A stretch of DNA of 64,000 nt from contig CAWVJB010000097.1 of NCBI GenBank assembly GCA_963929525.1, positions 22,914 through 86,913 of the forward strand, written 5' to 3'. Positions 9,189-54,238 of the stretch are shown in pieces. The position numbers and the translations under genes are program-made. The stretch comes from Bacillota bacterium (GTDB taxonomy: Bacteria > Bacillota > Clostridia > TANB77 > CAG-508). How positions within the stretch are numbered: the stretch's first letter is position 1; each line of letters starts with the position of its first letter. Below the pieces are notes generated by a model. The model made no database searches and was not told where the DNA came from. It saw nothing but the letters and a program-made list of their open reading frames with translations.

Positions 9189-9237
9189 AATTCTTCCCCC
9201 TATTAAATTATTCTATATCATTTATTACTTTACCTTA

Positions 9238-37815: not shown

Positions 37816-38565
37816 TTACCTACTCTTTGAAAATCTTCCATTTTTCCTTGGCTGTTTTTTAGCAATATTACTAAGTTTTTTCTTTGTTTCTTCCGAATGC
37901 TTTCTCGGTATCTCTTTAAACTCATTTATATCACTTATTAAGCCATTTCTTAATCTTTGCCATTGTAATTTATAATGTTTATTACATAATTGCATTTTAC
38001 TATTTGTCATTTCACAACAACCAGGATATTTGCATTTTTTTCTTTTATTTCCTTTATGTTTTTCTTTTTCATTATCTTCATGATATTTTGTATGCTCGCT
38101 TTTTGTCATTAACTCTAAATTATTTATGTCATTATTAGTTTTATTTTTATCTTTATGATGTACATCTTCATTTTTTGACAAAGGTCTTCCAATATATTCA
38201 GACATAACTAATCTATGTTCTAAGACATATCCTTTCTTGTTTGCATTTGGATTTTCTGGTTTCCACACTTCAACATATCCTTGTTTATTTATTCTTCTTC
38301 CACCTCTATTGTTAAATCCTTTTTTCCCTTTATGTGCTTTTATTGAATTTTCTAAGCATTTTTTTAATGGAAAAGGTTTACTTACTTCCATCCCTGCTGC
38401 CTTTAATGCTTCTCCCCAACTTCCAAATGCTGTCCTAAATGACATTTCACTTGGCAAATCTTTTCTGGAATTTATGTATCTTTTTGTAGGTACTTTTCCT
38501 TCTTTCTCATATATATTTTTTAAAATTTCTATTAATTGTTTCTGTTTAGTATTCACAATAATCAC
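37816..38565 (-). CDS. HNH homing endonuclease
   Basis: 249 aa. GYVLEHRLVMSEYIGRPLSKNEDVHHKDKNKTNNDINNLELMTKSEHTKYH = HNH_3 motif. Basic C-terminus. Confidence 0.7.
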   Translation of the reverse strand: MIIVNTKQKQLIEILKNIYEKEGKVPTKRYINSRKDLPSEMSFRTAFGSWGEALKAAGMEVSKPFPLKKCLENSIKAHKGKKGFNNRGGRRINKQGYVEVWKPENPNANKKGYVLEHRLVMSEYIGRPLSKNEDVHHKDKNKTNNDINNLELMTKSEHTKYHEDNEKEKHKGNKRKKCKYPGCCEMTNSKMQLCNKHYKLQWQRLRNGLISDINEFKEIPRKHSEETKKKLSNIAKKQPRKNGRFSKSR

Positions 38566-38968: not shown

Positions 38969-39333
38969 TCTTCCTTTCTCCTCACTGTATAACAGTTTGC
39001 TTGGTATTGTTCTTTAGTTAGTATTGTTTCTATTTCATTTTCTTCAAATGTATATCCCTTAGCTGTTACAAAACAATCTATAGTATCATAATGTTTACGT
39101 GATTGTTTTAAATCCATAATTATTTTATGTCCATTTACATAGTCTCCTACTTCTATTAGATCTATTAAATTTTTAGAATGTTTTGCTATATTTTCTATCT
39201 TAAAAGCAAAAGGTAATTCAAAGTTCATTTTTACATATATTGTGTCTTGATTGATTCTTATTACTTCTCCTATTCCCAAAGCAATTAATCTAAAATCATT
39301 ATTTATTCTTACATATTCTCCTACTTCAATCAT
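38962..39333 (-). CDS. hypothetical phage protein
   Basis: 123 aa ORF. Confidence 0.35.
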   Translation of the reverse strand: MIEVGEYVRINNDFRLIALGIGEVIRINQDTIYVKMNFELPFAFKIENIAKHSKNLIDLIEVGDYVNGHKIIMDLKQSRKHYDTIDCFVTAKGYTFEENEIETILTKEQYQANCYTVRRKEEC

Positions 39334-39863
39334 TCTTCATACCTCCAAATAAATCCATGTGATTTTTTATATTTTCCTTGACAACAAGCTATTATATTTG
39401 CAGTATTTATTTTTAATTTATCTGCCGCCTGTTTTATTGTGTCCCAAGTTCTAATAAAATTCCCATTTAAATCATATTGTTCAACTTTTCTACTCCTGTT
39501 GTTTTCTCTTCCAAATCTTTTTTTATTTAAACCTATTTTCCAGGCCTCATTTATATTATATTTGCAATCGCACCATTCTAAGTTTTCTATACTATTATCC
39601 AATTTATTTCCATCAATATGGTTAACTTGTGGTAAGTTTTTAGGATTAGGTATGAAAGTTTTTGCCACTAACCTATTTACCCTTTCAGTTTTTGTTTTTC
39701 CATTTTTAGCTAGAGACACCTGTAAATATCCTTTTTTGTTCTTTGTATATGTTAATATCTTCTCTTCTTTTACAAATTTTCTTTTTAAACTTTTTGTTCT
39801 TCCTAAATTGCTTACTTGATATAATCCTTCATATCCTTCAATATCTTTCCAAATTTCTTGCAT
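39330..39863 (-). CDS. NUMOD4-HNH homing endonuclease with C-terminal NUMOD1-like DNA-binding motif
   Basis: 177 aa. WKDIEGYEGLYQVSNLGRTKS (NUMOD4), NHIDGNKLDNSIENLEW (HNH), IKQAADKLKINTANIIACCQGKYKKSHGFIWRY (IENR/NUMOD1-like). Confidence 0.8.
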   Translation of the reverse strand: MQEIWKDIEGYEGLYQVSNLGRTKSLKRKFVKEEKILTYTKNKKGYLQVSLAKNGKTKTERVNRLVAKTFIPNPKNLPQVNHIDGNKLDNSIENLEWCDCKYNINEAWKIGLNKKRFGRENNRSRKVEQYDLNGNFIRTWDTIKQAADKLKINTANIIACCQGKYKKSHGFIWRYEE

Positions 39864-40489: not shown

Positions 40490-41218
40490 TTATCTACAAT
40501 AATTCCGCTTTTTATTGTTTGTTTTTATTCTTTTAAGTAAATCTATATATTTTAAATAATATTCTGGCAAATATAAACGCATATTTTCTAATTCTTTCTT
40601 GTTTTTATTTGCACAACACCAGCAGCTTACTCTGTCTAGAATGTCATAAAGTCTTATCCCATTCTCTTTCCAGTAAAATCCTCTATTGTAGCAATACTCT
40701 AAACAATCTGCTTCCGTCATTTTCCAATCCACAAGCGGTAATAATTTATGCTCGTTCCTTTCTTTTTCTATTCTTGTTGTTTCATCATAAGCTATTCCTA
40801 TAAATTCCATATAATCTTTTCCATATTTTTCTTTTAAATATTTTTCAATTGTTTTATTTTTCTCTGTCGTTCCCCATCTACATCTACCACCACATAAACC
40901 ATAACCTTTTTGTACTGTTCCTTCTCTTTTGTGTACTTCTATATTAAGCATTTTGTCTAAAAATGGTACTTTAGGTTTTAGCTCTGTATATTTTATATTT
41001 AATTCTTCTAGCAACTTTTTTATAATATCTCTAGTATCGTAGATAGCTTGAAATTCCATGCCAGTATCGTAAAATATTGCTTCATCTATGTCATATCTTT
41101 TTTCTATAAGTAAAAGTAACATTGCTAAACTATCTTTTCCAAAGCTTACACTTGCTATATATTTCATCTTATTTATTCCTCCTCTAATAATTCTTCTAAA
41201 TCTTCTACTGCTATACAT
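40490..41218 (-). CDS. PAPS-reductase-like PP-loop ATP-pyrophosphatase (phosphoadenosine phosphosulfate reductase family)
   Basis: 242 aa. PP-loop SVSFGKDS near the N-terminus, C-terminal Cys pair (VSCWCCANK). Confidence 0.7.
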   Translation of the reverse strand: MYSSRRFRRIIRGGINKMKYIASVSFGKDSLAMLLLLIEKRYDIDEAIFYDTGMEFQAIYDTRDIIKKLLEELNIKYTELKPKVPFLDKMLNIEVHKREGTVQKGYGLCGGRCRWGTTEKNKTIEKYLKEKYGKDYMEFIGIAYDETTRIEKERNEHKLLPLVDWKMTEADCLEYCYNRGFYWKENGIRLYDILDRVSCWCCANKNKKELENMRLYLPEYYLKYIDLLKRIKTNNKKRNYCR

Positions 41219-41520
41219 TCAAATCCACTTATATTTATAGTTTCATTTTCTATTAAATCTTTTACTTTTTGTTTTGATACAAACTGACTCATATATTCTT
41301 CAAATTGTGTGTTGTCTAAATCTCCCCATTGCTTAAATTCTAGTTTTGCTTCTAATTCTTTTACTCTATCTACTACATGTGCTATTGCTAGTTGATTAGA
41401 CATTCCTATCCAATTTGCATGTTCTGTTTTTATTAGCTCTTCACATCTTTTTATATCTTCTTCTATGCGTATCTCCATATATAACCTCCTGCTGTTTTGT
41501 TTTTTCCTTTTAAGCAGCAA
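41173..41520 (-). CDS. hypothetical phage protein
   Basis: 115 aa ORF overlapping the PAPS-reductase-like gene. Confidence 0.35.
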   Translation of the reverse strand: MLLKRKKQNSRRLYMEIRIEEDIKRCEELIKTEHANWIGMSNQLAIAHVVDRVKELEAKLEFKQWGDLDNTQFEEYMSQFVSKQKVKDLIENETINISGFECIAVEDLEELLEEE

Positions 41521-41982
41521 ACAATTCTTGTTGAAGTGATATTGTTTTCTTTACTTGCAATATTTATTGATGAATATGTTTGTAGTTCTATCATATTTTT
41601 TGTATATTTTTTAACTTTCTTTGCTCTATTCCCTACTTCACTATATTTTCCCTTTGCTAAACCATTCAACCATGCATGTTTTATATTTTCTTTACATGTA
41701 ACCCACTCTAAATTTTCAACTCTATTGTCTGTCTTTATTCCATTTTTGTGATTTACTTGTGGTTTATTATCTATGTTAGGAATAAAATTTTCTGCTACTA
41801 GTCTATGAATCCTCCTATATTTTTGAGATTTATTATTGTTTAAAGTAATTACTCTATATCCATCTTTGTTTATTTCTCCTTTTAATTCTTTTTTAGTTTT
41901 TCTATTTCTAATTTTTCCTAAATTACTAATTTCATATTTTTCAAATCCGCTTTATAATTTTCCATTCTTCTATATTACTCAT
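41463..41982 (-). pseudogene. NUMOD4-HNH homing endonuclease disrupted by a 1-bp insertion
   Basis: ATG at 41982 (GGGGTGG RBS) gives MSNIEEWKIIKRI*. The +1 frame continues GFEKYEISNLGKIRNRKTKKEL...VNHKNGIKTDNRVENLEWVTCKENIKHAWLNGLAKGK...IVCCLKGKNKTAGGYIWRYA*. An extra C in aagCggattt breaks the frame. Confidence 0.6.
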
Positions 41983-42214
41983 CTAACCACCCCAGTTCTT
42001 CTACTTTTTTATTTATTGCTTTTAGTTCTTGAATTGTAATTCCATATTCATTTTTGTCTGTAATATCTAAAATTTCATATTGATAATTAAACGAGAATGT
42101 TTTTGTTAAATCTTCATTTTCCCATTCTTCCCAAAATCTTGAAAAGATAAAATCTAGTTTTTTCTTTTTATATCCTAACTCTTCAAACATCTTATTTGCT
42201 GTTTTATTACTCAT
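41975..42214 (-). CDS. hypothetical phage protein
   Basis: 79 aa ORF. Confidence 0.35.
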   Translation of the reverse strand: MSNKTANKMFEELGYKKKKLDFIFSRFWEEWENEDLTKTFSFNYQYEILDITDKNEYGITIQELKAINKKVEELGWLDE

Positions 42215-42217
42215 TCT

Positions 42218-43171
42218 TTACACCTCTTTGTCTATCAAACTCCAGAATTTTTCTGCTCCATAATCATTTATCAATATCTTTCTTAATTCTTCTAAGCTAA
42301 TTTCTTCTAAATCTTGAATGTTATGCTCTTCACAAAATTTATTAGTTCCATATTGACATGCTCCTGTTATTGCTCTGTATTGTGCTCTATTTACTTTTCC
42401 TGTTCTCTTAATTTCTGCTACTATATTTTCTATTTCTTCATTTTGTGTTTTCTTATATATTAAATCATCCATTGCTTCTTTTAATGTCTCTCCGTGTGCT
42501 GATAAGTCTTTCTCTTTTACTATATAAACTTCTTCATTTGTATTATATAAATCTAATGCTTTTATTATTGTTATTCCTTCCCTCTTCTTTTCTGATATTT
42601 TTATAGTCTTTATATCATCTGAAATATCAACTGGATAAAGCTTTTTATTATATAATGTGTAATATTCTGTTTCTTTCAATATTCTTCCTTTATAATCTTT
42701 ATAATCTTTATTGCCTATTTGAGCTGATATAGCAAAACTTGGTATGTAATTATCATTTTCATCTTGTTCATATTCGCACAATGAAATCCATGTTCCTTTT
42801 TTAGCTTTTATTATAGATTTATAGCCACAAGCAAATCCAACAGAATTGTTTCCATTGATACCTATTTGTGCACTGTTTCCACTTGAACCTATTTGTGCAC
42901 TGTATCCACTTGAACCTATTCGTGCACTGTTTCCACTTGAACCTATTTGTGCACTGTATCCACTTGAACCTATTCGTGCCCAGTCTCCACTTGAACCTAT
43001 TTGTGCACTGTATCCACTTGAACCTATTTGTGCACTGTATCCACCGTTATCATTATTTTCATCATTACTATTTTGTTTTACATTTCTTATAAAATCAATT
43101 AATTTTTCACTAAAGTCACTAACTAATCTAACTCCTAATTTTTCTATTAATCCTTCAAAAAATTCAAACAT
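42218..43171 (-). CDS. hypothetical protein with seven tandem nonapeptide repeats (GSSGYSAQI)
   Basis: 317 aa. Repeats YSAQIGSSG/NSARIGSSG/DWARIGSSG encoded by near-perfect 27-bp DNA repeats. Confidence 0.5.
   Translation of the reverse strand: MFEFFEGLIEKLGVRLVSDFSEKLIDFIRNVKQNSNDENNDNGGYSAQIGSSGYSAQIGSSGDWARIGSSGYSAQIGSSGNSARIGSSGYSAQIGSSGNSAQIGINGNNSVGFACGYKSIIKAKKGTWISLCEYEQDENDNYIPSFAISAQIGNKDYKDYKGRILKETEYYTLYNKKLYPVDISDDIKTIKISEKKREGITIIKALDLYNTNEEVYIVKEKDLSAHGETLKEAMDDLIYKKTQNEEIENIVAEIKRTGKVNRAQYRAITGACQYGTNKFCEEHNIQDLEEISLEELRKILINDYGAEKFWSLIDKEV
42848..43046. repeat. 7 x 27-bp in-frame tandem repeat (cctatttgtgcactgtWtccacttgaa)
   Basis: Units start at 42861, 42888, 42915, 42942, 42969, 42996 with 0-4 substitutions each, plus a degenerate unit at each end. 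Confidence 0.75.
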
Positions 43172-43379
43172 ACTTATTTTTCCTCCGTTTCCATTAAATA
43201 TATTATTTCTTTTAAATTGTCTATCTCAACTTGATATTCTCTAATCTGTTTTTCTTTATTTTGTAATTCCATGTAGTTTATTGCTAATCCTATGTACATT
43301 CCGAATCAAAAATACAACTAATATAATAAATGCTGTTTTTATTTTCTTTTCTGTTTCGTATAAGTTTTTATTAAAATAT

Positions 43380-43925
43380 TTAGTCCTTTTCATTTGATTT
43401 CTCCTCCATTTCAAATTTATATTTATTTAAAATGTTATTTGTTTTTGTATAATCAAATATATCTTGTCTTTCTTCTATAATCTTATCTTTATAGAATTTA
43501 ATTTCTTCATTTATTTCTTTTATAAGTTCTGTATTTTCAAATTTTATTCCTTTAAAAATTTGATTTATGAAATATGGTTCTTCCAAATATTTAAAATTAA
43601 ATCCTCTATAATTAAAATTATCTTGTGGCTTTTCTACATTAACCTCTTCCATTAAATTTTCTTCTAGATAGTCATATATATTGATTTCTTCTGATAGCAA
43701 GACTTGTATTAAGTCTTCACTATCAGAATTATAAAATGTTATGTATGTTTTTTCTTTGTTGCTTGCTATACAAAAATATGTAATTGTATTATTTTTTCTT
43801 TCTTCTTTGATAACCTCTTCTGAATCTATTTTTAATACTTGAAATAAATTTTTGAATCTTTCTTTTTCTTTTATAATTTCTTCATATTCTTTTTTTGTAA
43901 TATATTCTTTCATTATTTTCCCCAC
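43380..43925 (-). CDS. hypothetical phage protein
   Basis: 181 aa ORF, last gene of the channel operon. Confidence 0.4.
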   Translation of the reverse strand: MGKIMKEYITKKEYEEIIKEKERFKNLFQVLKIDSEEVIKEERKNNTITYFCIASNKEKTYITFYNSDSEDLIQVLLSEEINIYDYLEENLMEEVNVEKPQDNFNYRGFNFKYLEEPYFINQIFKGIKFENTELIKEINEEIKFYKDKIIEERQDIFDYTKTNNILNKYKFEMEEKSNEKD

Positions 43926-44527
43926 ATTTCTTCAAAATTTGATTCACTTTCTAATTTATCTAAATCTATTTTTGTTTCTTGTTCTGCAAGTTGAGCATTA
44001 CTTGCATTAAACTCTATATCAATATCTTTTTGTATATCATCTATATTAAATTCTTCAAATTCTCCAAATTGACTTTCATATTCTTTTACTGCTTTACTAA
44101 ATCTATTTTTTGATTTCATTGTTTCTAAATTGTTCTGTAAATTTCTTATTTCTTTTTCATATCTTTCTTTTGCTTCTTTAAATCTTTGAACTATTAATTC
44201 TTGTTTTTGACTTTGCTCTTTTAAAACTATAATTCTTTGTTTTGTTGTATTTAATTCTTCAAATATTTGCTTAGCTCCCTCTTTATCATTTTTTGTTTTA
44301 CAAATCCCAAAACATTTATTTAATTTCTTTTCATTTTCTTGATTTTTCTTTAATTCATTTTTATAAGATTCTAATGCTCCTTGTGCGTTATAATAACTAT
44401 TATTTAAGTTTTTTAATGCTTCCTTTTGTCTGTTTAACCCCTCTTCTATTTTTTCTATATTATCTACCTTCACAAACTTATTAAATATCCTATCAAATAC
44501 TATTTTTAATTTTGTTAATTTTTTCAT
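43913..44527 (-). CDS. hypothetical coiled-coil protein
   Basis: 204 aa, overlaps the K+ channel gene stop by 4 bp. Confidence 0.4.
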   Translation of the reverse strand: MKKLTKLKIVFDRIFNKFVKVDNIEKIEEGLNRQKEALKNLNNSYYNAQGALESYKNELKKNQENEKKLNKCFGICKTKNDKEGAKQIFEELNTTKQRIIVLKEQSQKQELIVQRFKEAKERYEKEIRNLQNNLETMKSKNRFSKAVKEYESQFGEFEEFNIDDIQKDIDIEFNASNAQLAEQETKIDLDKLESESNFEEMWGK

Positions 44528-45243
44528 TCTTCATCATTCTCCTTTTTTTTATTTAATTCTTCTACAAATCCACTTGTTATAATTCCTGTTGGAAGTGCTA
44601 CAAATGCAATTCCTACTAAACTAGATATTATACTTATCAATCTTCCTATTTCTGTTTTAGGACATATGTCTCCATATCCTACTGTTGTTAATACTGTTGT
44701 AGACCAGTATATTGCTTCAAAAAAATTCTTAAAGCTTTGATTTTCAAACTGAAACATTATTAATGCTGAAATGAATATAAATCCTGCTGTAAATCCACAT
44801 ACTACCTCTAATATTTTTTTATTTTTATTAACTACACTTTTGATTATTTCAAATTTACTAGAGTATCTTAATGTTTTTGCTATTCTTAATATTCTAAATA
44901 TACTAAATATTCTTAAAATATATGAACTGTTAAATATTTCACTAAAACATGATAAGATAATTACTAAATCAAATATTGCTGAAAGCGTAAATGGGTATTT
45001 TATAAAGCTAGTTATTCCTTTTTTTAACCTAAAATCTGACGTTATCCATCTCAATATGTAATCAATCACAAATACTATTGTTGTTAAAATTGTTAGAATA
45101 TATGTAAAATTATTTTGTTCTTTAAATGTTAACGGAATTATACTAATCCATATGCAAATTAGTATTAATATGTCATACCATTCGTAATATGTTGTATCTT
45201 TTTCAACTATCTTAAACAACTTTTTTCTTACCATGTTAACCAT
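44524..45243 (-). CDS. voltage-gated-type (6TM, Kv/KvAP-like) potassium channel
   Basis: Selectivity filter TTVGYGD. S4-like helix ILRIFSIFRILRIAKTLR with R/K every third residue. 6 predicted TMs + pore helix. Likely ATG at 45243 (MVNMVRKK...). The track's TTG at 45303 gives a 259-aa version. Confidence 0.8.
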   Translation of the reverse strand: MVNMVRKKLFKIVEKDTTYYEWYDILILICIWISIIPLTFKEQNNFTYILTILTTIVFVIDYILRWITSDFRLKKGITSFIKYPFTLSAIFDLVIILSCFSEIFNSSYILRIFSIFRILRIAKTLRYSSKFEIIKSVVNKNKKILEVVCGFTAGFIFISALIMFQFENQSFKNFFEAIYWSTTVLTTVGYGDICPKTEIGRLISIISSLVGIAFVALPTGIITSGFVEELNKKKENDEE

Positions 45244-45878
45244 ATAGCTAATCCTACTACTCCTCCAATTATTGCTAATATAATAACCACAAATAGTAGC
45301 CAATTATACCATTTCCAACCATCATAAAATGGTTTATTTGCTTTTTCTTCTGTTCTTGCTTCATCTAGAATTTGATCTACTTCTTCTTTACTATATCCTC
45401 TCTCTTCTAATGCTTTTGCTACATCTTGTTCTGTTACTTGTTCTTTGCCAGAAAATATTTGGTCTAACATATAGAATTGAAATATACTATTTGTTAAAGA
45501 AAATCCTGTGTCTGTACTGTATGTTGTATAATATGTTGGATTATTATTAACTATTGTTGATTTCCCAGTTGAATCTGTCTTTGGTTTAACTGTATCATGA
45601 CTAACCGTTGTCCTTCCAGAACTGCTTTTAGTTGTTGTATAGCTTTTTCCTGATGTGCTACTTTTTGTTGTGCTAGATTTTGGTGTACTAGCTTTTACTG
45701 AACTACTTGTACTACTCTTAGTAGAGCTTTTAGGTGTACTAGACTTCACACTACTATGCGAACCACTACTTCTTGCACCACTTGAATGTGCCCTTGCATA
45801 AATTGTTGGAGTTGTTACTCCTATTATTGTTATTATTATTGCTATTGCACTAATTATTTTAATTACTTTATTTTTCAT
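45228..45878 (-). CDS. Ser/Thr-rich bitopic membrane protein (signal peptide + C-terminal TM)
   Basis: 216 aa. AGGAGG RBS. N-terminal signal MKNKVIKIISAIAIIITIIG, long S/T/K low-complexity region, C-terminal TM WLLFVVIILAIIGGVVGLAIWLTW. Overlaps the channel gene start. Confidence 0.55.
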   Translation of the reverse strand: MKNKVIKIISAIAIIITIIGVTTPTIYARAHSSGARSSGSHSSVKSSTPKSSTKSSTSSSVKASTPKSSTTKSSTSGKSYTTTKSSSGRTTVSHDTVKPKTDSTGKSTIVNNNPTYYTTYSTDTGFSLTNSIFQFYMLDQIFSGKEQVTEQDVAKALEERGYSKEEVDQILDEARTEEKANKPFYDGWKWYNWLLFVVIILAIIGGVVGLAIWLTW

Positions 45879-46135
45879 TTATTTTCCTCCTCTAAACCAT
45901 TTATAAATTTCTTTTTATCCTCTTCTGATAATTCTTTTATAATCATTCCAAACTCGCAAAGAGATTTTCTAAATTTTTCAATGCTATTTTGTAAAGTAAA
46001 AGTATTGATATCTATTTCCAAATATTTTGGATTTGTTTCTAGTCTCTCTAATTGCCCTGCTTGTAAAAATGTCACTTGTTCACATTTTCTTCTGTCACAT
46101 GTTAAGAATTTTGCACAATTATTACATTTATTCAT
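45875..46135 (-). CDS. hypothetical small protein with CxxC motif
   Basis: 86 aa. MNKCNNCAKFLTCDRRKC. Confidence 0.4.
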   Translation of the reverse strand: MNKCNNCAKFLTCDRRKCEQVTFLQAGQLERLETNPKYLEIDINTFTLQNSIEKFRKSLCEFGMIIKELSEEDKKKFINGLEEENK

Positions 46136-46141
46136 TTTCTA

Positions 46142-46426
46142 TCACTCTTTCTTTTTGTATACTGCTACCCTCTTCTTTGTTAAACTATCTTCTTTTACAC
46201 CGCATTCAACTAACTTTCCATAGTCTTTTACTAATTCTGTCAATCTTGGTCTTACATGATTCATGTCAAAATACTTTGAATATCCTCTTCTGTTCATTTC
46301 TTTTTCTAGCTCTCTTGCAGTCATTTTTCTGTCTCCAATTATTTCTAATATTTGCATGTATTTATTTCTTTTTTGTGGCTTTATATCTTCGAAACTTAAT
46401 TGTCTTGTTTCTATCATCTTCAACAC
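46142..46426 (-). CDS. hypothetical winged-helix-like protein
   Basis: 94 aa. MTARELEKEM...RPRLTELVKDYGKLVECGV pattern suggests a wHTH. First gene of the operon. Confidence 0.35.
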   Translation of the reverse strand: MLKMIETRQLSFEDIKPQKRNKYMQILEIIGDRKMTARELEKEMNRRGYSKYFDMNHVRPRLTELVKDYGKLVECGVKEDSLTKKRVAVYKKKE

Positions 46427-46556
46427 TTCCTTTAATGTGTTTTTATATCTTGTGTATATATTGCTTGTCCTTGTATAATCATTAGTAGTAATCTACATCT
46501 TTCTAGATTATTTGCTTTTCTAATATCCTCTTCATTAATTACTTTTTTCATATGTT

Positions 46557-47777
46557 TCACCTCACTAAATTCACGAATGTACTTAGTTGTTTATTAAATT
46601 TAACTTTTACTTTTCCAATGTCTCCTGCTCTCTGTTTTGCTAGTTTTAATGTTGTAATATTATCCTCTTCATTTTCTTTATAAATAAAAATTATATTATC
46701 TGCATCTTGTTCTAAACTTCCACTTTCTCTTAAATCTGCTAGCGTTGGCTCTCCTATGTTTGCATTTCTGTTTAATTGGCAAAGTGCAATTATTGGAATA
46801 TTTATTTCTAAGCTTAATAGTTTTAGTCTTCTACTTATTTCTGCTACCTCTTGTTCTCTTAAATTAAATTTTCCTTGACTTTTTAGTAGTTGAATATAAT
46901 CTATTATCAATAAATCTAATTTATCTTTATTTTTTAATCTCTTAGCCATAACTTCTATATCTTGTATTGTTCTTACTCTTGTATTTATTGTCAAATTTAA
47001 TTCAGATAATTGTATACTTGCTCTTGCTATCTTTTCCCAATCTCCCTCTTCTAATGTTCCGAGTCTCATCTTGTAACTGTTTACTATACTCTGTTTTGCT
47101 ATCATTTTTTGAATCAATTGTGTTTGAGACATTTCTAAACTTGCAAATACAACATTTTTCTTTTTTGCTATTTCTTGTGCTATCTGTAATGTTAATGTTG
47201 TTTTTCCCATTCCTGGTCTTGCTCCTATGATTGTTAATTCTTGATTATGTAGTCCACATGTTAATTTGTCTAAATCAAAAATTCCTGTATATAGACTATA
47301 ATCATTTCTGTTGTTGTAATTTCTTTCTATCTCATTTGTTGTTTCTGCTATTTGCTCTACAAATGTCTTTTCTTTTGTATTTATTTTTTCTATATTGTTT
47401 AATTTATCTATACAATCTTGAATATATATATCTATGTTTCCCTCTTCTGTAACATTTGCTAAAATACTTTGTGCTAATTCAAATACTTTTCTTTTTTTAG
47501 ACAATTCTTTTAATCTGTTATAGCAACCTTCTGCTGTTATTCCATAGATGTTATTTCCCAAATTTGATATGTATTCTAAAATTTGTTTTTGATTTCCTTT
47601 TATTTTATTTTGTACTGCTAAAATTGATATATCTTCCTTTTCTAGTTTTAGCTCTTCTATTGCTTTTGCTATCATTTTGTTTTTTATATTTATAAAATCT
47701 GATTCTTCGATGTCTAATTCTTCGTTTTTAAAAATTATGTAATAAAGTACTGCTTTTTCAATTTCTTCATCATACAT
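46557..47777 (-). CDS. replicative DNA helicase (DnaB family)
   Basis: 406 aa. Walker A GARPGMGKTT, Walker B LLIIDYIQLL, DnaB C-domain motifs. Confidence 0.85.
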   Translation of the reverse strand: MYDEEIEKAVLYYIIFKNEELDIEESDFINIKNKMIAKAIEELKLEKEDISILAVQNKIKGNQKQILEYISNLGNNIYGITAEGCYNRLKELSKKRKVFELAQSILANVTEEGNIDIYIQDCIDKLNNIEKINTKEKTFVEQIAETTNEIERNYNNRNDYSLYTGIFDLDKLTCGLHNQELTIIGARPGMGKTTLTLQIAQEIAKKKNVVFASLEMSQTQLIQKMIAKQSIVNSYKMRLGTLEEGDWEKIARASIQLSELNLTINTRVRTIQDIEVMAKRLKNKDKLDLLIIDYIQLLKSQGKFNLREQEVAEISRRLKLLSLEINIPIIALCQLNRNANIGEPTLADLRESGSLEQDADNIIFIYKENEEDNITTLKLAKQRAGDIGKVKVKFNKQLSTFVNLVR

Positions 47778-48540
47778 CTTTTTCTCCTCTCAGTTTTTTA
47801 AAGTATTCTTCTTCTGTCATTGTACATTCTTTGTATTCTATTTCCTCTTCTTCTGTTTGTTCTTTCTTATTGCTTTGATTTTTATTCGACTTAAATTCTT
47901 CTTGACTGATTCTAAATTGTTTGGCTGTTTTTATATTGTTATCCACACAGTTAACTAAGATTGTGGATATATATTTCCAATTTCTTTTATTTCTCGAAAC
48001 TGCCTCTTTCATTACTTCGATTATTAAATCCTCTTCTAAGTTATCTACTTTTAAAAATTTATCAATATCTTCTGAAACGAATGGTGTGATTAATGTGATA
48101 TTGTTTTCATAAAATTCTATAATTTTTTTATATGCTTCTTCTTTTTCTTTTTTATTATTAATACTTGTAATATTCTCTTTGACGTTTTCGTCAATACCCT
48201 CTTGATTTTTTTGACAATACCCCTTGACGATTTCGTCAATACCCCCTTGATTTTCAATATTAACTAAAGAAATTATTCTTTTGTCTATTTCTTTAGAGTC
48301 TTTTTTATAAAAAAATGTAATGTATATATATCCTTTTTTATTTAGTTGACTAATCCATCTTGATATTGTTTCTTTACTAACACCATACAAATTTGCAAAA
48401 TATTCATTTCCTGCCCAGCATATTCCTTTTTCGTTACATAGTGCCGTTATTTCACTGTATAACAATTTTGCGTTAGCCATTAATTCTTTATCATATCGAA
48501 CTTTTGCAGGTATAATTGCATAATAATTTGGATTTTCCAT
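47770..48540 (-). CDS. phage replisome organizer / replication initiator (N-terminal Phage_rep_org_N-like)
   Basis: 256 aa. YSEITALCNEKGICWAGNEYFANLYGVSKETISRWISQL typical of the replisome-organizer N-domain. Carries the internal iteron array. Confidence 0.6.
   Translation of the reverse strand: MENPNYYAIIPAKVRYDKELMANAKLLYSEITALCNEKGICWAGNEYFANLYGVSKETISRWISQLNKKGYIYITFFYKKDSKEIDKRIISLVNIENQGGIDEIVKGYCQKNQEGIDENVKENITSINNKKEKEEAYKKIIEFYENNITLITPFVSEDIDKFLKVDNLEEDLIIEVMKEAVSRNKRNWKYISTILVNCVDNNIKTAKQFRISQEEFKSNKNQSNKKEQTEEEEIEYKECTMTEEEYFKKLRGEKDV
48181..48254. repeat. phage origin iterons inside replisome-organizer gene
   Basis: Three copies of (T)TCGTCAATACCC(C)CTTGAT at ~21-22 bp spacing, plus palindromes GACGttttCGTC / GACGatttCGTC. 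GC-rich island in an AT-rich gene. Confidence 0.6.
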
Positions 48541-48598
48541 TTTTATACTTCTCCTTTACTTTTGTTATGATATAATCATCTCGAAAGGTGGTGATTAT

Positions 48599-48802
48599 AT
48601 GGTTGTCTATGCTAATCTTTTAGGTAAATGGACTGAACTTGGAGATGAGGACATGATTGAAGATGAAACCGCTGAAATATATGTTAATTTTGAATTATCT
48701 AAGAAAAATTTAAACACAACCAATCAGTTTCTTAATGTTATTCATAAAAATGAAATTTATCATATTCATATCTCACAAATCCAATGGAAATCAGCATTAT
48801 AG
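48599..48802 (+). CDS. hypothetical small protein
   Basis: 67 aa + strand ORF in the gap between replication and regulator genes. Weak support. Confidence 0.25.
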   Translation: MVVYANLLGKWTELGDEDMIEDETAEIYVNFELSKKNLNTTNQFLNVIHKNEIYHIHISQIQWKSAL

Positions 48803-48964
48803 TGCATTGCTTTGCAATGTGCTATTTGTATATTCTTCATCTATGTATGTTTTTATAAATTCCCATTCCTTATAGGTTATTTTTTCTCCTTCTAACCACC
48901 TTATAATTTCTTTCCTTTTCTCCTTTATTTCGTCTGTTCTACTTTTTTCCATTTTTATCTCCTC

Positions 48965-49384
48965 CTAAATATAATTTTTCCCATATCTTTTTCTAAATTC
49001 TTCTTTTGTTTTTTTATAATATTTCATCCATGCTTCTTGTCCTTTTTTCTTTAAATATCTATTGAGTTTGTCTCCATTTTTTCCATGCACTCCATTAGTT
49101 CCTCTATGATCCTCTTCTGTTAAAAATATTATTAATCCGTCTTTTATACTTTTCATTCTGTAAGCTTTTGAAAAGAAAACTTCATGCCTTTCACTATATT
49201 TTTTAGTTCTTACTGTGCTATACTTTGTGCTTTTAGGCATAATACAAAAATCTGATTCTAACTCTTTTTTCTGTTTCTTAATTTCTTTAAGGACCTCTTT
49301 TTTACTATCTTTTGATACAACCTTATTTTTCGGACATGGATTAAAACTTTTTGACAAATCTTTCACTACCATCTCGCACCTCAT
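48965..49384 (-). CDS. hypothetical basic phage protein (possible nuclease-like)
   Basis: 139 aa, Lys-rich. HRGTNGVHGKNGDKLNRYL segment weakly HNH-like. Confidence 0.35.
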   Translation of the reverse strand: MRCEMVVKDLSKSFNPCPKNKVVSKDSKKEVLKEIKKQKKELESDFCIMPKSTKYSTVRTKKYSERHEVFFSKAYRMKSIKDGLIIFLTEEDHRGTNGVHGKNGDKLNRYLKKKGQEAWMKYYKKTKEEFRKRYGKNYI

Positions 49385-49612
49385 TTAAACTAAATGTCCA
49401 AAATTTAATCCACAATTTCTACAATAATTGTCTGTATGTTCACACCTTGTTAAGCATTCTGGACAAAATGTATCTTTATATTTAGAAATATTAAAACTAT
49501 TTCCTGTTTGTAATATTTCCACTTCATCTCCTGGTTTTAAATCCATTTCTTTTCTTATTTCTACTGGAATTACAATTCTTCCTAATTTATCTAATTTTCT
49601 ATTCATTTTCAT
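49385..49612 (-). CDS. AbrB/MazE/SpoVT-family DNA-binding protein with C-terminal zinc ribbon
   Basis: 75 aa. LDKLGRIVIPVEIRKEMDLKPGDEVEI is the swapped-hairpin AbrB fold motif, followed by CPEC...C..CRNC. Confidence 0.6.
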   Translation of the reverse strand: MKMNRKLDKLGRIVIPVEIRKEMDLKPGDEVEILQTGNSFNISKYKDTFCPECLTRCEHTDNYCRNCGLNFGHLV

Positions 49613-49688
49613 TCCCTTTCTTGATTTTCTGCCTAATTTTTGTTATACTGTAGTAGAAAATCATATGTTTATATATGTTTATGTAGAG

Positions 49689-49964
49689 CTAGTTTAATGA
49701 TTGGTAGTCGCTAACTAGTTCTTTTAATTTGCTCAAAATTGCTTTTTCATTATTGTATTTGTTAGAATTTACTAATCTATCTATTCTACTGATAAAATCT
49801 TTTTGTTCTTCATTTTCAAATCTTAAGTCTTTATTTTCTTCATATAATGCTAAATTTTCTTGTTTTTGCAATACTTCTTTGCTTTTCAAATCCTCTATTA
49901 AAATGTCTCTATTTAATACTTTAGTTTCTAAATTTCTTATTTTCCTATCTTTTCTTGTAAACAT
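49689..49964 (-). CDS. hypothetical coiled-coil protein
   Basis: 91 aa ORF. Confidence 0.35.
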   Translation of the reverse strand: MFTRKDRKIRNLETKVLNRDILIEDLKSKEVLQKQENLALYEENKDLRFENEEQKDFISRIDRLVNSNKYNNEKAILSKLKELVSDYQSLN

Positions 49965-50325
49965 TTCTTTTTCTCCTTTCTAATAAATTACTGTTCTAGT
50001 ACATGCCCAGATAAAAAACATTACTGCTGTTACATATCCTGCTGTATATACTACTGCTCGTCCTATAAAAGCATAAATTTTATTCGGATCTAGTTTTCTT
50101 TTCATTTGTATCACCTTCTTTCATTTGTCTAAATTAAGAATTTCCCAACCTATTTTGTTAAATTCTTCATAAACCATTTCTTTTTCTTCTTCTGTTTTAG
50201 GATAAAATTCATCGTCAACTTCTATTGTTGTATTTCCTAATTTAAATTCTTTTACTACCATTTTGTAACCACCTCTTTAAATGTCTATTCATGTTGCTTG
50301 TACCTTTTTCTTGTACCGTGTCGCA

Positions 50326-50562
50326 TTATCTTGTTGATTTTTTATCAACTTCTGTCGTAAAAAAATAATCCATTGTTTCTTGTGCTGTTAAATCAAAAAT
50401 ATCAATGGCTGTTTGTATTTCATCTTGATCAAACACATTCTTATTGTTCAACTTATAACTTAATGATGCCTCTGAAATACCTAATTTTTGTGCAAATTCT
50501 GATTGTTTTGAAAAACATTCCTTTATTCTTCCTTTTAACTTACTGTAATCATATTGTTTCAT
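50326..50562 (-). CDS. Cro-like HTH regulator
   Basis: 78 aa. SEFAQKLGISEASLSYKLNN HTH. Divergent from the CI-like repressor. GGAGGAG RBS. Confidence 0.55.
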   Translation of the reverse strand: MKQYDYSKLKGRIKECFSKQSEFAQKLGISEASLSYKLNNKNVFDQDEIQTAIDIFDLTAQETMDYFFTTEVDKKSTR

Positions 50563-50733
50563 TTTTCTCCTCCTTTCGGTTGATTTTTTATCAACTTCGT
50601 AATTATATTAACAAAACAAAAATATCTTGTCAATAGCTTTTTTGATTTTTTTTCAACTTTTTTTGATTTTTTATAAAATAAACTTGATTTTTTGTCAATT
50701 TTACTTTATAATACAATTATTGGAGGTACATAT
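50563..50733. promoter_or_regulatory. divergent PR/PRM-like promoters with repeated TTGATTTTTT(A)TCAA operators
   Basis: Perfect palindrome TTGATTTTTTATCAA at 50580-50594 (between cro -10 and RBS) and again at 50334-50348. Degenerate copies near 50650-50700. cro promoter TTGACA-17-TAATAT/TATAAT on the minus strand. cI promoter TTGATT-17-TATAAT on the + strand. Confidence 0.55.
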
Positions 50734-51381
50734 ATGAAATTAGTAGACACATTTGGGAATAGACTACAAAAAGCGTTAGAAGATTCTAACATGAAGCAAG
50801 TAGATTTAGTAGAAAAAACTGGCCTAGATAAAACCTTAATAAATAAATATCTAGCAGGGTTAATGAAAGCTAAGCAAGATAAATTAACTATTCTTGCAGA
50901 AGCTTTAAACGTTAATGAAGTTTGGCTTATGGGGTATGACATTCCCAAAGATAGAAATATTAAATTAGATAAGCTCGGAAATCCAGTAGCTGAAATTCCT
51001 CTTTTAGGTACAGTAAAAGCAGGATATGATTATATGGCACAAGAAAACTGGGAAGGTATGATAGAAGTTGATAAAGATGTAATCAAGGATGGTGCCGATT
51101 ATTTTGCTTTAAAAATAAAAGGAGATAGTATGTCCCCTGTACTAATAGAAAATGACATAGTTGTTATAAAAAAACAAGAAGATTTTGAAAATGGAGACTT
51201 GGTTGTTGCTATTATCAACGGAGATGAAGCCACAATAAAAAAAGGTAGAAAAAATGATACTAGTATTGTTTTACAGCCATTTAATCCTAACTATGAGCCA
51301 CTTATATTTACTAATGATGAAATGAAAACTATACCTGTTACTATAGTTGGAATAGTGAAACAATTAAAAAGGGATTTTTAA
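50734..51381 (+). CDS. CI-like phage repressor (HTH + S24 LexA-type peptidase domain)
   Basis: HTH QVDLVEKTGLDKTLINKYLAG. S24 domain with Ser-Lys dyad (KGDSMSP ... IKKGRK). ATG 50734 with GGAGG RBS. Track start 50692 is a TTG. Confidence 0.8.
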   Translation: MKLVDTFGNRLQKALEDSNMKQVDLVEKTGLDKTLINKYLAGLMKAKQDKLTILAEALNVNEVWLMGYDIPKDRNIKLDKLGNPVAEIPLLGTVKAGYDYMAQENWEGMIEVDKDVIKDGADYFALKIKGDSMSPVLIENDIVVIKKQEDFENGDLVVAIINGDEATIKKGRKNDTSIVLQPFNPNYEPLIFTNDEMKTIPVTIVGIVKQLKRDF

Positions 51382-51401: not shown

Positions 51402-51908
51402 ATGTTAAAAGATAGAAAAAATATCATTATTTTAATACTATCAATAATCATATTTATAATGGTTATCGGAATAATTGTTTTCTTAAGTATTAATTCAGCT
51501 ACTAAAGAAAGAAAATTAGATGGATCTAAGATGTCTTCTTCTGAATTACTAGAAATGTTTGAAAATGAAGGCTATGAAATCAAGATGAGCAACATTGATG
51601 GAACTCTTTATATCAACCTAGAAAACGAAAGAGATGGTATTACTATTCAAAGGATTCCTGATACTCTAATAGGTACTTTAATGACTTTTGATGATGATAG
51701 TATTAATGATGAAATGGCAGATTTAATAACTATTTCAGAAAACGACTCAAAGGAAAAACAAGAACAATATGAAGCTTATAAAAGTTGGATGGAATATTAT
51801 AATATAACTAAAACACAATTATCTGAAATGCTAGATACGTATTACAATAACAATAAAGATAAAATTGAAACAATTAATACAGAAGATTTATTAAAATCAC
51901 TTAATTAA
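51402..51908 (+). CDS. membrane-anchored hypothetical protein co-transcribed with cI (candidate superinfection-exclusion/lysogenic-conversion gene)
   Basis: 168 aa. N-terminal TM IIILILSIIIFIMVIGIIVFL. Immediately downstream of the repressor gene. Confidence 0.45.
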   Translation: MLKDRKNIIILILSIIIFIMVIGIIVFLSINSATKERKLDGSKMSSSELLEMFENEGYEIKMSNIDGTLYINLENERDGITIQRIPDTLIGTLMTFDDDSINDEMADLITISENDSKEKQEQYEAYKSWMEYYNITKTQLSEMLDTYYNNNKDKIETINTEDLLKSLN

Positions 51909-52056: not shown

Positions 52057-53610
52057 ATGAAAAACAATATAAATAATAATATGGAATATTATTGTTGTTA
52101 TCTTAGAAAATCAAGAAAAGATATGGAAGCTGAAGCTCATGGACAAGGTGAAACCTTAGCCAGGCATGAAAAGAGATTAAAAGAATATGCATCTTCTGTT
52201 GGTATTAAAATAAGTAAATTCTATAGAGAAGTAGTATCTGGTGAAACTATTTCTGCTCGACCAGTTATGCAACAGTTGTTAACAGATGTTGAAAATGGAA
52301 TGTGGACAGGAGTATTAGTTGTAGAAGTAGAACGTTTAGCAAGGGGTAATACTTTAGACCAAGGTATCGTGTCTAATGCATTTCAATACTCTAATACAAA
52401 AATAATCACACCTTTAAAAACTTATGATCCTAACAATGATTATGATGAAGAATATTTTGAATTTGGATTATTTATGTCTAGAAGAGAATATAAAAAAATA
52501 AATCAGAGACTTCATGATGGTATTTTAGCTAGTGTAAAAGAAGGCAAACATGTTGGAACCTCTGCTCCATACGGATACGAAAAATACAAATTACCAAAGC
52601 AAAAAGGATATTCTTTAAAGATAAACCAACGCGAAGCAGAAATGATAAAGTTAATATTTGATTTATATAATTCTGGAAATGGACTAGATTTTATATCTCA
52701 TAAGTTAAATGCTCTAGGTTTTAAACCTCGCAGAGGAAAAGATTTTGCAAAATCTTCAATAAAACATATCCTTACTAATCCAGTTTATATAGGAAAAATT
52801 AAATATACAGATAAAGCAACAACTAAAAAAGTTATTAACGGAGAAATTGTTAGAGTAAAAAATGAGAATAAAAATATTATATATGTAGATGGTTTACATG
52901 AGCCAATAATTGATTTAAACACATGGAATAAAGCACAAAATATACGCAAAAACAATTTAATTAATCACGTTAAAGTAGATTATACGTTAAAGAATCCAAT
53001 GGCTTCTATTTTGAAATGTGGAATTTGTGGAAAATCTTTAGAAAGAATTACTTATTCTGGAAGAAACGATATCAGAGTTTGTTGCAGAAAATGTAAAGAA
53101 AACATTGGTAGTAATATAAATTTTGTAGAAGAACGATTATTAGAATCATTAAAATTGTTGCTCAATGATTATAGAATGAAAGTACTTAATAATGATAATA
53201 CAGATATTGATGCATTAGTAGACATGAATAATAAGAGTATTAATAATTTTAAAACCGAACTAGAAAAAAATCAATCTCAATTAAATAAGACTTATGATTT
53301 ATTAGAACAAGACATATATACTAAAGAAATATTTCTTGAACGTTCTACTTATCTAAAACAACAAATAGAAAATATTAGCGAACATATAAAACAATTAGAA
53401 AAAAATAATAAAGATATTTTAAAAGGAAAGAATAATAAAGAAGTTCTAATCCCCAAAATAGAAAAAGTAATAGATACTTATTATGAAACAGAAAATATAG
53501 AATTAAAAAATAAATTATTAAAAAGTGTATTAGAAAAAGTTGAATATTTAAAGATTAATCCTAAAAATAAAGATGATTTTAAATTGAAATTATATCTTAA
53601 ACTATACTAA
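52057..53610 (+). CDS. large serine recombinase (phage integrase, resolvase/invertase N-domain + recombinase + zinc-ribbon domains)
   Basis: 517 aa. N-terminal catalytic-domain motif YLRKSRKDMEAEAHGQGETLARHEKRL (nucleophile Ser in RKS), GVLVVEVERLARG, Cys cluster CGICGK...CCRKCKE, C-terminal coiled coil. Confidence 0.9.
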   Translation: MKNNINNNMEYYCCYLRKSRKDMEAEAHGQGETLARHEKRLKEYASSVGIKISKFYREVVSGETISARPVMQQLLTDVENGMWTGVLVVEVERLARGNTLDQGIVSNAFQYSNTKIITPLKTYDPNNDYDEEYFEFGLFMSRREYKKINQRLHDGILASVKEGKHVGTSAPYGYEKYKLPKQKGYSLKINQREAEMIKLIFDLYNSGNGLDFISHKLNALGFKPRRGKDFAKSSIKHILTNPVYIGKIKYTDKATTKKVINGEIVRVKNENKNIIYVDGLHEPIIDLNTWNKAQNIRKNNLINHVKVDYTLKNPMASILKCGICGKSLERITYSGRNDIRVCCRKCKENIGSNINFVEERLLESLKLLLNDYRMKVLNNDNTDIDALVDMNNKSINNFKTELEKNQSQLNKTYDLLEQDIYTKEIFLERSTYLKQQIENISEHIKQLEKNNKDILKGKNNKEVLIPKIEKVIDTYYETENIELKNKLLKSVLEKVEYLKINPKNKDDFKLKLYLKLY

Positions 53611-53659: not shown

Positions 53660-54067
53660 TCATTTATCAAAATGTACCCATGTTGGTGTTAATGAAATTG
53701 GCTCTACATATGTCCATACTCCTGAATTATTCGCACTATTCCAAAGAACTCTTCTTCTCTCTGCTGACAAAGTTTGCCCAACATCAAAAGCTACTCCTGC
53801 ATAATGTTGACTTTGATTTCCATGTCCCCCTTCATATGGTCTTTTAAAAGCAAATCCCACTGGTATTGGTCCTCCAAAAATATATCTTTGACTATTCCAG
53901 CTTTGCATCGTTCTTTTCGTTGTCCATAATATATTACTTTTGCTTGAACCTCTAAATTCTCTTACTCTTAATGTTCCATTTGTATTGTATGGCATTGGGT
54001 CAGCTTCATTCCTATAATAGGTTTCCATTTTATCTGTATCATTGTTAAACACTAATATTTTTGCCAT
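53660..54067 (-). CDS. M15-family (LAS) L-Ala-D-Glu peptidase catalytic domain; 5' half of a host cell-wall hydrolase gene truncated by the prophage
   Basis: 135 aa. Zn-ligand motifs SQHYAGVAFD (SxHxxGxAxD) and WVHFD. Stop codon supplied by phage DNA directly after the att core. PG-binding C-half found at 11510-11803. Confidence 0.65.
   Translation of the reverse strand: MAKILVFNNDTDKMETYYRNEADPMPYNTNGTLRVREFRGSSKSNILWTTKRTMQSWNSQRYIFGGPIPVGFAFKRPYEGGHGNQSQHYAGVAFDVGQTLSAERRRVLWNSANNSGVWTYVEPISLTPTWVHFDK
53664..53676. other. attR core (TTATCAAAATGTA) of prophage
   Basis: Identical 13-mer to 11787-11799. Lies in the last codons (VHFDK*) of the truncated M15 peptidase ORF, ~55 bp from the integrase stop. 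Reconstructed attP has flanking inverted repeat GTAACAAT/ATTGTTAC. Confidence 0.6.
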
Positions 54068-54238
54068 AAAAAATAATCCTCCCTTTATAGTTTTTTACTA
54101 TTATATATATGAGAAAATTATTTTTTTGTTACGTTTTATATTTTCTTTTAAAATGTTAAAAATTGTAAATTTTATATAAAAATATTGAAACAAAAATCGG
54201 TTATGATATATTTTGATTGAAATTCTCAGAAGGGATTG

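Follow-up and report, generated by a model that had tools for sequence, protein, structure and literature searches.

In a 64,000-nucleotide stretch of DNA from a Bacillota bacterium of the Clostridia (GenBank assembly GCA_963929525.1, contig CAWVJB010000097.1, positions 22,914 to 86,913 of the forward strand; hereafter the window), a prophage carries four consecutive genes for a Ser/Thr-rich membrane protein (ST), a K+ channel of the voltage-gated (Kv) type, a predicted homologue of PspA and a soluble protein of 177 amino acids (p177). The same gene order, ST (213-235 amino acids, aa), channel (237-242 aa), PspA-like protein (204-205 aa) and p177 (171-181 aa), was found in about 35 loci, and the locus is a mobile four-gene cassette that moves jointly among phages with different replication and integration modules. 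With a confidence that stops a little short of even, we propose that the cassette acts as a membrane-maintenance module of the lytic cycle, through which an infected cell would stay energised up to the point of programmed lysis.

Conservation and mobility of the four-gene cassette

The loci were collected by exact-protein contig look-up and collection scans, and were then scored by tblastn and local hidden Markov models (HMMs). The phage backbones on which the cassette stands differ among the loci (DnaD/DnaB, DUF927 primase, Sipho_Gp157/AAA_24, RecT/DUF1351, ERF or DnaG/DnaB), the integrases of the cassette-bearing phages are of either the serine or the tyrosine type, and in one case the cassette lies in a 124-kb contig adjoining genes for UvrD, PolIII-alpha and RNR. 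The 204-aa and 177-aa proteins have few homologues at 45-52% identity or above, and every one examined sits in a cassette. The ratios of nonsynonymous to synonymous substitution (dN/dS) of all four core genes, 0.10-0.5, indicate purifying selection.

Whenever the channel is present, its gene lies between those for ST and the PspA-like protein, with the frames overlapping or near-abutting. In the window the ST and channel genes overlap by 16 nt, an ATGA overlap joins the upstream Cys-rich (CxxC) open reading frame (ORF) to ST and another joins the channel to the 204-aa gene, and the 204-aa and 177-aa genes meet at TAATG. The first-pass annotation of this DNA, made from the sequence alone, had described overlapping stop and start codons across six genes; this holds for the four junctions among the last five genes, whereas the first two, for a winged helix-turn-helix (wHTH)-like protein and the CxxC protein, are separated by a 6-nt spacer without overlap. 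Nor is the six-gene string the unit of conservation; it is a core of four genes that is conserved, the genes for the wHTH-like and CxxC proteins being found with it in none but the nearest relatives. The Ser/Thr-rich membrane protein proposed there as the partner of the channel is encoded directly upstream in every cassette locus, channel present or not, and the recurrence of the pair, and of the whole four-gene core, in about 35 loci of other phages disposes of the worry that the operon might be confined to this prophage.

Six loci lack the channel (L030, L031, L036, L129, L130 and L131), ST being followed directly by the 205-aa and about 172-aa genes, and no channel remnant was found in any of the six. 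When the 204-aa proteins were joined in a neighbour-joining tree with distant relatives as the root, the channel-less forms were nested among the channel-bearing ones; the simplest history suggested by these sequences would be that the channel was gained once and then lost once or twice. In one gut-metagenome contig (L133, 1426-2172) the PspA-like gene matches residues 1-61 only; this partial gene, together with a related 341-aa cluster (P0175) carrying a transposase domain (PF00872), suggests occasional disruption of the cassette by insertion sequences.

A complete Kv-type channel with a depleted voltage sensor

The channel gene starts with an ATG preceded by AGGA 9 nt upstream, giving a product of 239 aa; a 259-aa form starting at TTG is unlikely because the homologues begin where the 239-aa form does. 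Pfam Ion_trans matches the protein with an E-value of 1.1e-26 (93.9 bits; cut-off 25) across positions 2-237 of the 241 in the profile, Ion_trans_2 with 2.9e-17 and PHROG 7872 with 3.8e-36, and a phmmer search of PDB sequences gave KCNQ2 as the best match (1.6e-23; channel residues 18-232, covering S1-S6), with KCNQ5 and KCNQ4 also recovered. The hydropathy profile has five peaks plus a charged S4, and a cytoplasmic ligand-binding domain is absent. The alignment columns of the selectivity filter, T186-D192, do not vary in any of the 15 aligned sequences, and the filter is present in all proteins of the cassette clade; the columns of the charge-transfer residues F58 and D61 (S2) and D92 (S3) are likewise invariant. 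Judged from its sequence, the 239-aa product is a complete K+ channel of the Ion_trans family with six transmembrane segments (6-TM), and K+ conduction is predicted, in good agreement with the first-pass annotation, which had recognised a 6-TM channel with a canonical TTVGYGD filter and had named the Ion_trans and Ion_trans_2 profiles as the means to check it. A frame or sequencing artefact affecting the filter or S4, a doubt also raised there, is excluded: the gene is real because 2243 homologues were found and dN/dS inside the phage clade is 0.15-0.21, as expected under purifying selection.

The S4 segment, YILRIFSIFRILRIAKTLR, reads R-S-R-R-K-R in the Kv frame, with five K/R and Ser at the R2 position, and a 9-nt periodicity of its coding sequence was picked up by Tandem Repeats Finder. 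What had been called a textbook S4, with R/K at every third position, thus has the basic pattern, but with Ser at one position and with five K/R against 6-10 in cellular and other viral relatives. Across the phage cassette clade the K/R count is 2-6, mostly 5 (the subclade of the window) or 3 (two sister subclades). The channel scores under the curated NCBIfam cut-offs for the MVP-type and Kch-type equivalogs, and the match to the MVP-type hyperpolarisation-activated channel (44.8 bits against a cut-off of 300) was not used for assigning gating polarity.

The pore mouth also distinguishes the clade. The residue after GYGD-I is Cys in 69 of 70 phage-clade proteins; relatives carry Tyr or Phe at the same position, Tyr accounting for 41 of the 46 cellular channels and for 67 of the 71 other viral ones. 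On these alignments the voltage-sensor charges are eroding in the cassette clade, and the S4 losses and the pore-mouth Cys set it apart from all relatives. Residence in the cassette coincides with relocation to the lytic early region, S4 charge erosion and the pore-mouth substitution.

Kv-like channels of other phages

In IMG/VR, 111 viral contigs carry a Kv-like relative, and the best 80, which were examined, comprise 9 of the cassette clade and 71 others. The 71 are 30-49% identical to the window channel, and none has ST, the PspA-like protein or p177 within 4 kb; the partners are equally absent from the cellular relatives examined (about 46-48% identity, in Butyrivibrio-like genomes). Among 138 neighbours of the 71 channels we counted 38 HTH_3, 13 Peptidase_S24, 15 Phage_integrase (tyrosine), 7-9 serine recombinase and 8 Abi_2 proteins, and the gene order in Dulem virus 33 is XRE, channel (annotated as 'Ion transport protein') and integrase. 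A Kv-like channel in a prophage is therefore not as unusual as had been supposed, in view of the 111 contigs, PHROG 7872 and the 'ion transport protein' annotations of GenBank phages.

About 70 viral contigs (IMG/VR L052-L122, and PP511792.1, which is L040 5001-5708) have a fully charged Kv-like channel beside XRE/S24 repressors, integrases or Abi_2. These immunity-module channels are candidates for a widespread prophage-expressed function, either defence or lysogenic conversion, because their slot is that of rexAB in lambda.

The 204-aa protein as a divergent member of the PspA/Vipp1 superfamily

The 204-aa protein itself belongs to no Pfam, PHROG or NCBIfam family, PspA_IM30 not being hit even at E <= 10, and its close family consists of 61 clusters, all at least 52% identical. 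When a profile of 13 members (A1) was compared with PDB sequences, Vipp1/PspA occupied the top 4 places (E 0.006), residues 14-147 aligning in register with 14-149. The AlphaFold2 model (predicted local distance difference test, pLDDT, only 74) shows helices 3-78 and 82-137 as a hairpin, followed by four short helices, and in a Foldseek search of PDB with this model the top 11 matches were Vipp1/PspA, with a probability of 1.00, a TM-score of about 0.53 and 17-20% identity to Vipp1. Exhaustive HMMER searching over 1.84 billion representatives yielded 59 relatives, about 45 of them end-to-end with 200-237 aa; 17 of 49 relatives match Pfam PspA_IM30 (PF04012) themselves (best 2.5e-12), one of the relatives (P0213) has a precomputed PspA_IM30 match marked as weak, and a second-round profile (A4) matched Vipp1/PspA with 7.8e-15 (1-160 to 1-163). 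For residues 1-20 the helical hydrophobic moment is 0.55-0.56, where shuffled sequences reach 0.44 at the 95th percentile, and the helix has a cationic face; an FDR motif aligns to the N-terminal region of Vipp1, and the conserved C-terminal tail is acidic-aromatic (NFEEMWGK). Profiles and predicted fold together indicate that the 204-aa protein is a divergent member of the PspA/Vipp1 (ESCRT-III) superfamily. The two coiled-coil proteins of the first-pass annotation are accordingly to be replaced by a PspA/Vipp1 homologue, as indicated by the profiles and Foldseek, and a 177-aa protein predicted to be globular alpha/beta.

Five distant PspA-like relatives that were looked up (L037 6001-6615, L038 197-811, L039 6001-6627, L041 193-855 and L042 5001-5666) are all located in phage-like contigs, one of 202 kb, and have the acidic-aromatic C-terminal tail in common. 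This distant family is of about 200-220 aa, 20-33% identical to the window protein, and comes without ST or channel. A 'YYKDKI..DY' motif of p177 recurs in the proteins encoded downstream in L037 and L038; as to a common partner family 3' of the distant genes, a local HMM found nothing and hhalign gave a 40-column C-terminal motif with a probability of 18%, which we retain as no more than a weak lead. None of the 49 PspA-like relatives falls into a PHROG family, tblastn against 50,697 phage records gave no match for the PspA-like protein, the C-terminal half of ST, p177 or two distant PspA-like relatives, and no paper on a phage-encoded PspA was found in the literature.

ST, p177 and the accessory ORFs

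The N-terminal part of ST resembles a signal peptide (residues 5-23), after which comes a conserved small-x-small site, Y-[AG]|R-[AG]-H. Residues 29-110 contain 55% S+T and are basic (14 K/R against 2 D/E), and a conserved region of about 90 residues includes NPTYY..NSIFQYYML and VTEQD.AKALEE.GYSKEEVDQILDEA; a Trp/Tyr-rich juxtamembrane belt, KPFYDGWKWYNW, then leads into a C-terminal transmembrane helix (194-212) that is almost tail-less. ST matches phrog_30129 (3e-16; function unknown) and no Pfam family, including PspB, PspC, LiaI and TPM. From this layout ST would be a single-pass protein, mostly extracytoplasmic and anchored at its C-terminus. Acting as a KCNE-like beta-subunit cannot be its sole role, because ST persists where the channel is missing. 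Matches of ST to DivIVA-, RecX- or RuvA-type helical motifs (E 0.02-0.06 over about 20 residues) were rejected as not diagnostic.

For p177 an alpha/beta fold is predicted with a pLDDT of 87.6, consisting of an N-terminal helix, a six-stranded sheet and three C-terminal helices, and no relatives were found beyond the cassette homologues. A PDB profile match to a Piwi-domain stretch was weak (E 0.029) and was dismissed. p177 is a candidate for binding or regulating the PspA-like protein; neither ST nor p177 belongs to the known Psp/Lia partner families (PspB, PspC, LiaI/LiaF, YdjH-TPM, Band-7, CesT/Tir). A 45-aa ORF (43256-43393, minus strand) overlaps the end of the p177 gene and is annotated as a gene in related contigs; it is 73-100% conserved in the nearest relatives only and has a short hydrophobic stretch under the transmembrane threshold.

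The 86-aa CxxC ORF is full-length in L001-L006 only and is shortened or missing elsewhere. The 91-aa ORF occurs with the cassette only in the nearest relatives and is elsewhere unlinked to it; the wHTH-like identity given to its product was not confirmed, the sole match being phrog_1123, of unknown function.

The prophage and its surroundings

The prophage extends from about 13.6 to 53.6 kb of the window, and the six co-directional ORFs occupy 46426-43380 of the minus strand (Table 1). They are followed on this strand, in order, by genes for a protein resembling phosphoadenosine phosphosulfate (PAPS) reductase, homing endonucleases, an RNA ligase, TerL and portal, and further along by those for capsid, tape measure, SPP1-type Dit, Tal and a C39/SH3 lysin; among the main prophage genes only the recombinase and the repressor are on the plus strand. 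Recombinase, repressor, replication and structural genes bear out the description of the locus as a compact co-directional string in the early region of a temperate siphophage. Bacterial genes flank the prophage, namely one for a penicillin-binding protein and a giant ORF of the GH94 glucan-synthase-like kind. Close relatives come from metagenome-assembled genomes of uncultured Clostridia or Clostridium and from human-gut metagenomes, and no near-identical DNA was found among GenBank phages.

Table 1. Features of the prophage and the four-gene cassette, with positions in the window.
Feature	Position	Strand	Basis or remark
Serine recombinase	52057-53610	+	prophage end gene
S24/XRE repressor	50692-51381	+	immunity region
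DnaD-like gene	47770-48540	-	upstream of cassette
DnaB gene	46557-47777	-	upstream of cassette, next after DnaD-like
91-aa accessory ORF	46142-46417	-	phrog_1123 at 7.5e-12; no Pfam match
Cys-rich 86-aa accessory ORF (C4, C7, C13, C18)	45875-46135	-	no family match
ST, 216-aa Ser/Thr-rich membrane protein, first core gene	45228-45878	-	hydropathy, composition, family alignment
Channel, 239-aa 6-TM Kv-type K+ channel (S1-S4 voltage-sensor-like domain and pore)	44524-45243	-	Ion_trans
S4 segment, residues 108-126	44866-44922	-	register from KCNQ2 alignment
Selectivity filter TTVGYGD, residues 186-192	44668-44688	-	sequence
Predicted PspA/IM30/Vipp1 (bacterial ESCRT-III) homologue, 204 aa	43913-44527	-	profile and fold evidence
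p177, soluble 177-aa protein, last core gene	43380-43916	-	
Lysin gene	13637-15166		about 28 kb away from cassette

Several other ORFs of the window deserve mention. The early/middle region also contains the RNA ligase, two HNH/NUMOD homing endonucleases and the PAPS-reductase-like protein (phrog_424), at 34969-35841, 37816-38565, 39330-39863 and 40490-41218 on the minus strand. Adjoining the 3' end of the cassette, and not conserved together with it, is the gene for a 317-aa protein (42218-43171, minus strand) in which a Gly/Ser-rich repeat of 9 aa (..SAQIGSSGY..) arises from a 27-nt unit present in 7.3 tandem copies; the protein has a weak YdhT-like NCBIfam match (1.7e-11, under the cut-off) and tail-fibre-like PHROG matches. 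Between the S24 repressor and the serine recombinase lies a 168-aa ORF without Pfam family (51402-51908, plus strand), in the immunity-module position that holds a Kv-like channel or Abi_2 in other phages. On the bacterial side, two neighbouring 336-aa ORFs are found at 8178-10248 (minus strand), one of the RhuM family (6e-105) and the other without Pfam family. Past the recombinase end, and after two intervening ORFs (53660-54067 and a PHP-domain ORF at 54236-55114), a host ORF of 2827 aa (55169-63652, minus strand) has GH94 and glucoamylase domains and resembles cyclic beta-1,2-glucan synthase.

Proposed function and alternative explanations

On the lytic strand, the cassette has the replication genes on one side and the packaging genes on the other, at about 5 kb into the early string of that strand and about 4-7 kb from the repressor. 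A consensus scan of 41000-51000 gave 59 promoter-like sites against 65 expected, with no enrichment and no dedicated promoter for the cassette; no terminator-like sites were detected on the cassette strand in the same range, and no upstream intergenic region is conserved across backbones. Because of these three results we infer expression together with the lytic early genes; transcription of the cassette would then accompany that of the early and middle genes of the lytic cycle. The PspA-like protein may bind the inner face of the host membrane via its amphipathic N-terminal helix and polymerise there, sealing or stabilising the membrane in the manner of cellular PspA, LiaH and Vipp1, which are known for this activity (PMC8281802, PMC7619361). 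p177 might bind or regulate the PspA-like protein, plausibly at the acidic-aromatic C-terminal tail, ST might anchor or target the system at the envelope, and the charge-depleted channel might provide a weakly voltage-dependent K+ conductance that keeps the membrane potential close to the equilibrium value for K+. What the phage would gain is protection from premature holin triggering or from depolarising abortive-infection (Abi) effectors of the host. A cellular precedent is the PspA (YjfJ-type) operon that includes a K+ channel (PMC11237479), and the pairing of channel and PspA-like protein probably lets the phage manage the host membrane in infection. A wider formulation, namely that tailed phages encode an ESCRT-III/PspA membrane repair of their own and that this Clostridia lineage recruited a Kv channel with a blunted sensor as an anti-depolarisation module, directed against Abi effectors that target the membrane or against holins firing too early, is more doubtful.

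A number of points weigh against membrane maintenance. The 204-aa protein itself falls below every Pfam threshold, and because there is no direct Pfam match the PspA-like assignment leans on profile and fold evidence. Expression in the lytic phase is deduced solely from gene position and consensus scans, and the roles given to ST and p177 are guesses, neither protein offering a family or structural clue. As ST seems to be extracytoplasmic and the PspA-like protein cytoplasmic, direct contact between them would be possible only via the transmembrane helix. Where the gut lumen is rich in K+, an open channel could have a depolarising instead of a stabilising effect on the cell, and the channel is not essential to the other three genes because it has been lost in six loci. 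The neighbours 3' of the cassette in relatives (RNA ligase with KTI12/AAA_33 kinase, T7 Gp5.9-like, Tad2-like and YopX, with a methyltransferase nearby) are typical of takeover or counter-defence and speak for the proposal, although guilt by association is weak evidence here.

The best of the alternatives, which we nevertheless consider unlikely, is defence by the lysogen, in which a channel resembling RexB or Sbash gp31 would perturb the membrane potential on superinfection and cause Abi, or ST would block DNA entry, while the PspA-like protein shields the lysogen. Most other phage Kv-like channels do reside in the immunity module beside repressor and integrase (the 71 contigs and Dulem virus 33), ST is a predicted surface-exposed membrane protein, and prophage-expressed Abi systems based on ion channels are known, RexAB and Sbash gp30/31 (PMC6426596). 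The present cassette, however, stands outside the immunity region in the lytic early string, with neither promoter-like enrichment nor an isolating terminator-like site, and it occurs also in the 124-kb contig beside PolIII, RNR and UvrD genes. PADLOC models gave no convincing match, the best being coiled-coil noise (tails of ZorA, JetC and LmuB), no RexA/DUF4747-like sensor was matched among the cassette proteins, and the other three genes occur without the channel. Moreover, a K+-selective pore moves the membrane potential toward the K+ equilibrium potential and not to zero. The suggestion in the first-pass annotation of a superinfection-exclusion or Abi module thus fits poorly with the lytic early placement and suits the immunity-module channels of other phages better.

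Somewhat less probable again is a lysis-timing device, in which channel and PspA-like protein would tune holin firing, delaying it through a stabilised proton-motive force or hastening it through K+ efflux, and thereby set the burst size. Holins of the lambda and T4 types fire on loss of membrane potential, and the module, situated on the lytic side of the prophage, would join a potential-setting channel to a membrane-stabilising protein if both predicted roles are correct. Yet the lysin gene is about 28 kb off, so that the cassette is not in the lysis module, and the cassette moves between backbones independently of lysis genes; the idea also overlaps heavily with membrane maintenance, from which it is inseparable by sequence alone.

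We rate as improbable, a little below lysis timing, a takeover of K+ homeostasis, in which the channel would serve K+ uptake or retention for translation, replication or turgor, and the trio with the PspA-like protein would be an independent envelope module that happens to adjoin it. K+ channels of phages, for which no role was known, have been described and considered in connection with the K+ fluxes of an infection (PMC6163359), gut phages of spore-formers are enriched in K10716 (yugO-type channel) genes (PMC10294663), and the trio does remain where the channel is lost. This explanation is weakened because the insertion point of the channel is fixed between ST and the PspA-like protein, with overlapping or near-abutting frames, and because the changes in the channel are specific to the clade; the coincidence of S4 charge loss and the Tyr-to-Cys substitution with cassette residence argues for functional integration of the channel over mere adjacency.

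Finally, chance neighbourhood, an annotation artefact or a decaying passenger channel, to which declining S4 charges and absence from six loci might point, is very improbable and largely refuted by the conservation and selection data, namely the identical order in about 35 loci on different backbones, a channel dN/dS that, where the sequences compared are more divergent, ranks lowest or nearly so among the four genes, the invariant filter, pore helices and charge-transfer centre, and the four intact ORFs.

Comparison with known systems

The channel alone is of an already known kind because phage K+ channels, K10716 genes and Kv-like entries in PHROG and GenBank are known. With KCNQ/Kv7 and the prokaryotic 6-TM voltage-gated-type K+ channels of Ion_trans (PF00520), such as KvAP and MVP, it shares S1-S6, the TTVGYGD filter, F-x-x-D in S2, Asp in S3, a basic S4 and a Pro-containing S6; unlike them it has only 239 aa without cytoplasmic domain, is phage-encoded, and carries five K/R in S4 and Cys after GYGD-I. 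The natural series of S4 charges (8 to 5 to 3) would be a ready set for the study of the voltage sensor in a minimal 239-aa channel. PHROG 7872, Dulem virus 33 and the 71 IMG/VR channels are of the same family and length and belong to temperate phages whose hosts include gut bacteria and others, but the 71 lie mostly in the lysogeny/immunity module and have a fully charged S4 and none of the cassette partners within 4 kb, so that the two groups offer a natural comparison of one channel family on the lytic and lysogenic sides.

The viral 2-TM channels of chloroviruses (Kcv) and of Vibrio, Mycobacterium and Acinetobacter phages are also virus-encoded and have a G(Y/F)GD filter. They are pore-only proteins of about 80-230 aa with no voltage-sensor domain and no reported PspA-like partner, and the survey of these channels does not mention 'voltage' (PMC6163359). 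Lambda RexAB and Sbash gp30/gp31 likewise combine a phage-borne membrane ion-channel protein with a soluble partner; their site of lysogenic expression near the immunity region, the 4-TM non-selective channel candidate and the DUF4747 sensor are features not found here.

The closest parallel to the whole cassette is cellular. Psp, Lia and Vipp1 systems, including the YjfI-YjfJ (CesT/Tir-PspA) dyad, place a PspA-family gene beside those for membrane proteins and a small soluble partner, they share the predicted ESCRT-III-like hairpin and the amphipathic N-terminal helix, and one class of cellular operon also has a K+ channel. In the YjfI-YjfJ operons, however, this channel is described as ligand-sensing (PMC11237479), unlike the bare, phage-encoded Kv-type channel of the cassette, and the partner precedes PspA, whereas here the PspA-like gene comes before its partner. 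Both the phage PspA-like family and the fixed cassette with a charge-depleted Kv channel appear to be undescribed in the literature, PHROG and GenBank phage records searched. PspA owes its name to the fact that a phage protein induces it; the existence of a PspA family encoded by phages would mean that they, too, exploit this ancient membrane-remodelling machinery. As the hosts are human-gut Clostridia, the module may influence the dynamics of prophage induction in the gut, and the fixed pair of PspA-like protein and K+ channel would provide a compact, testable system for the coupling of membrane potential to membrane repair and for the defence of an energised cell by a phage.

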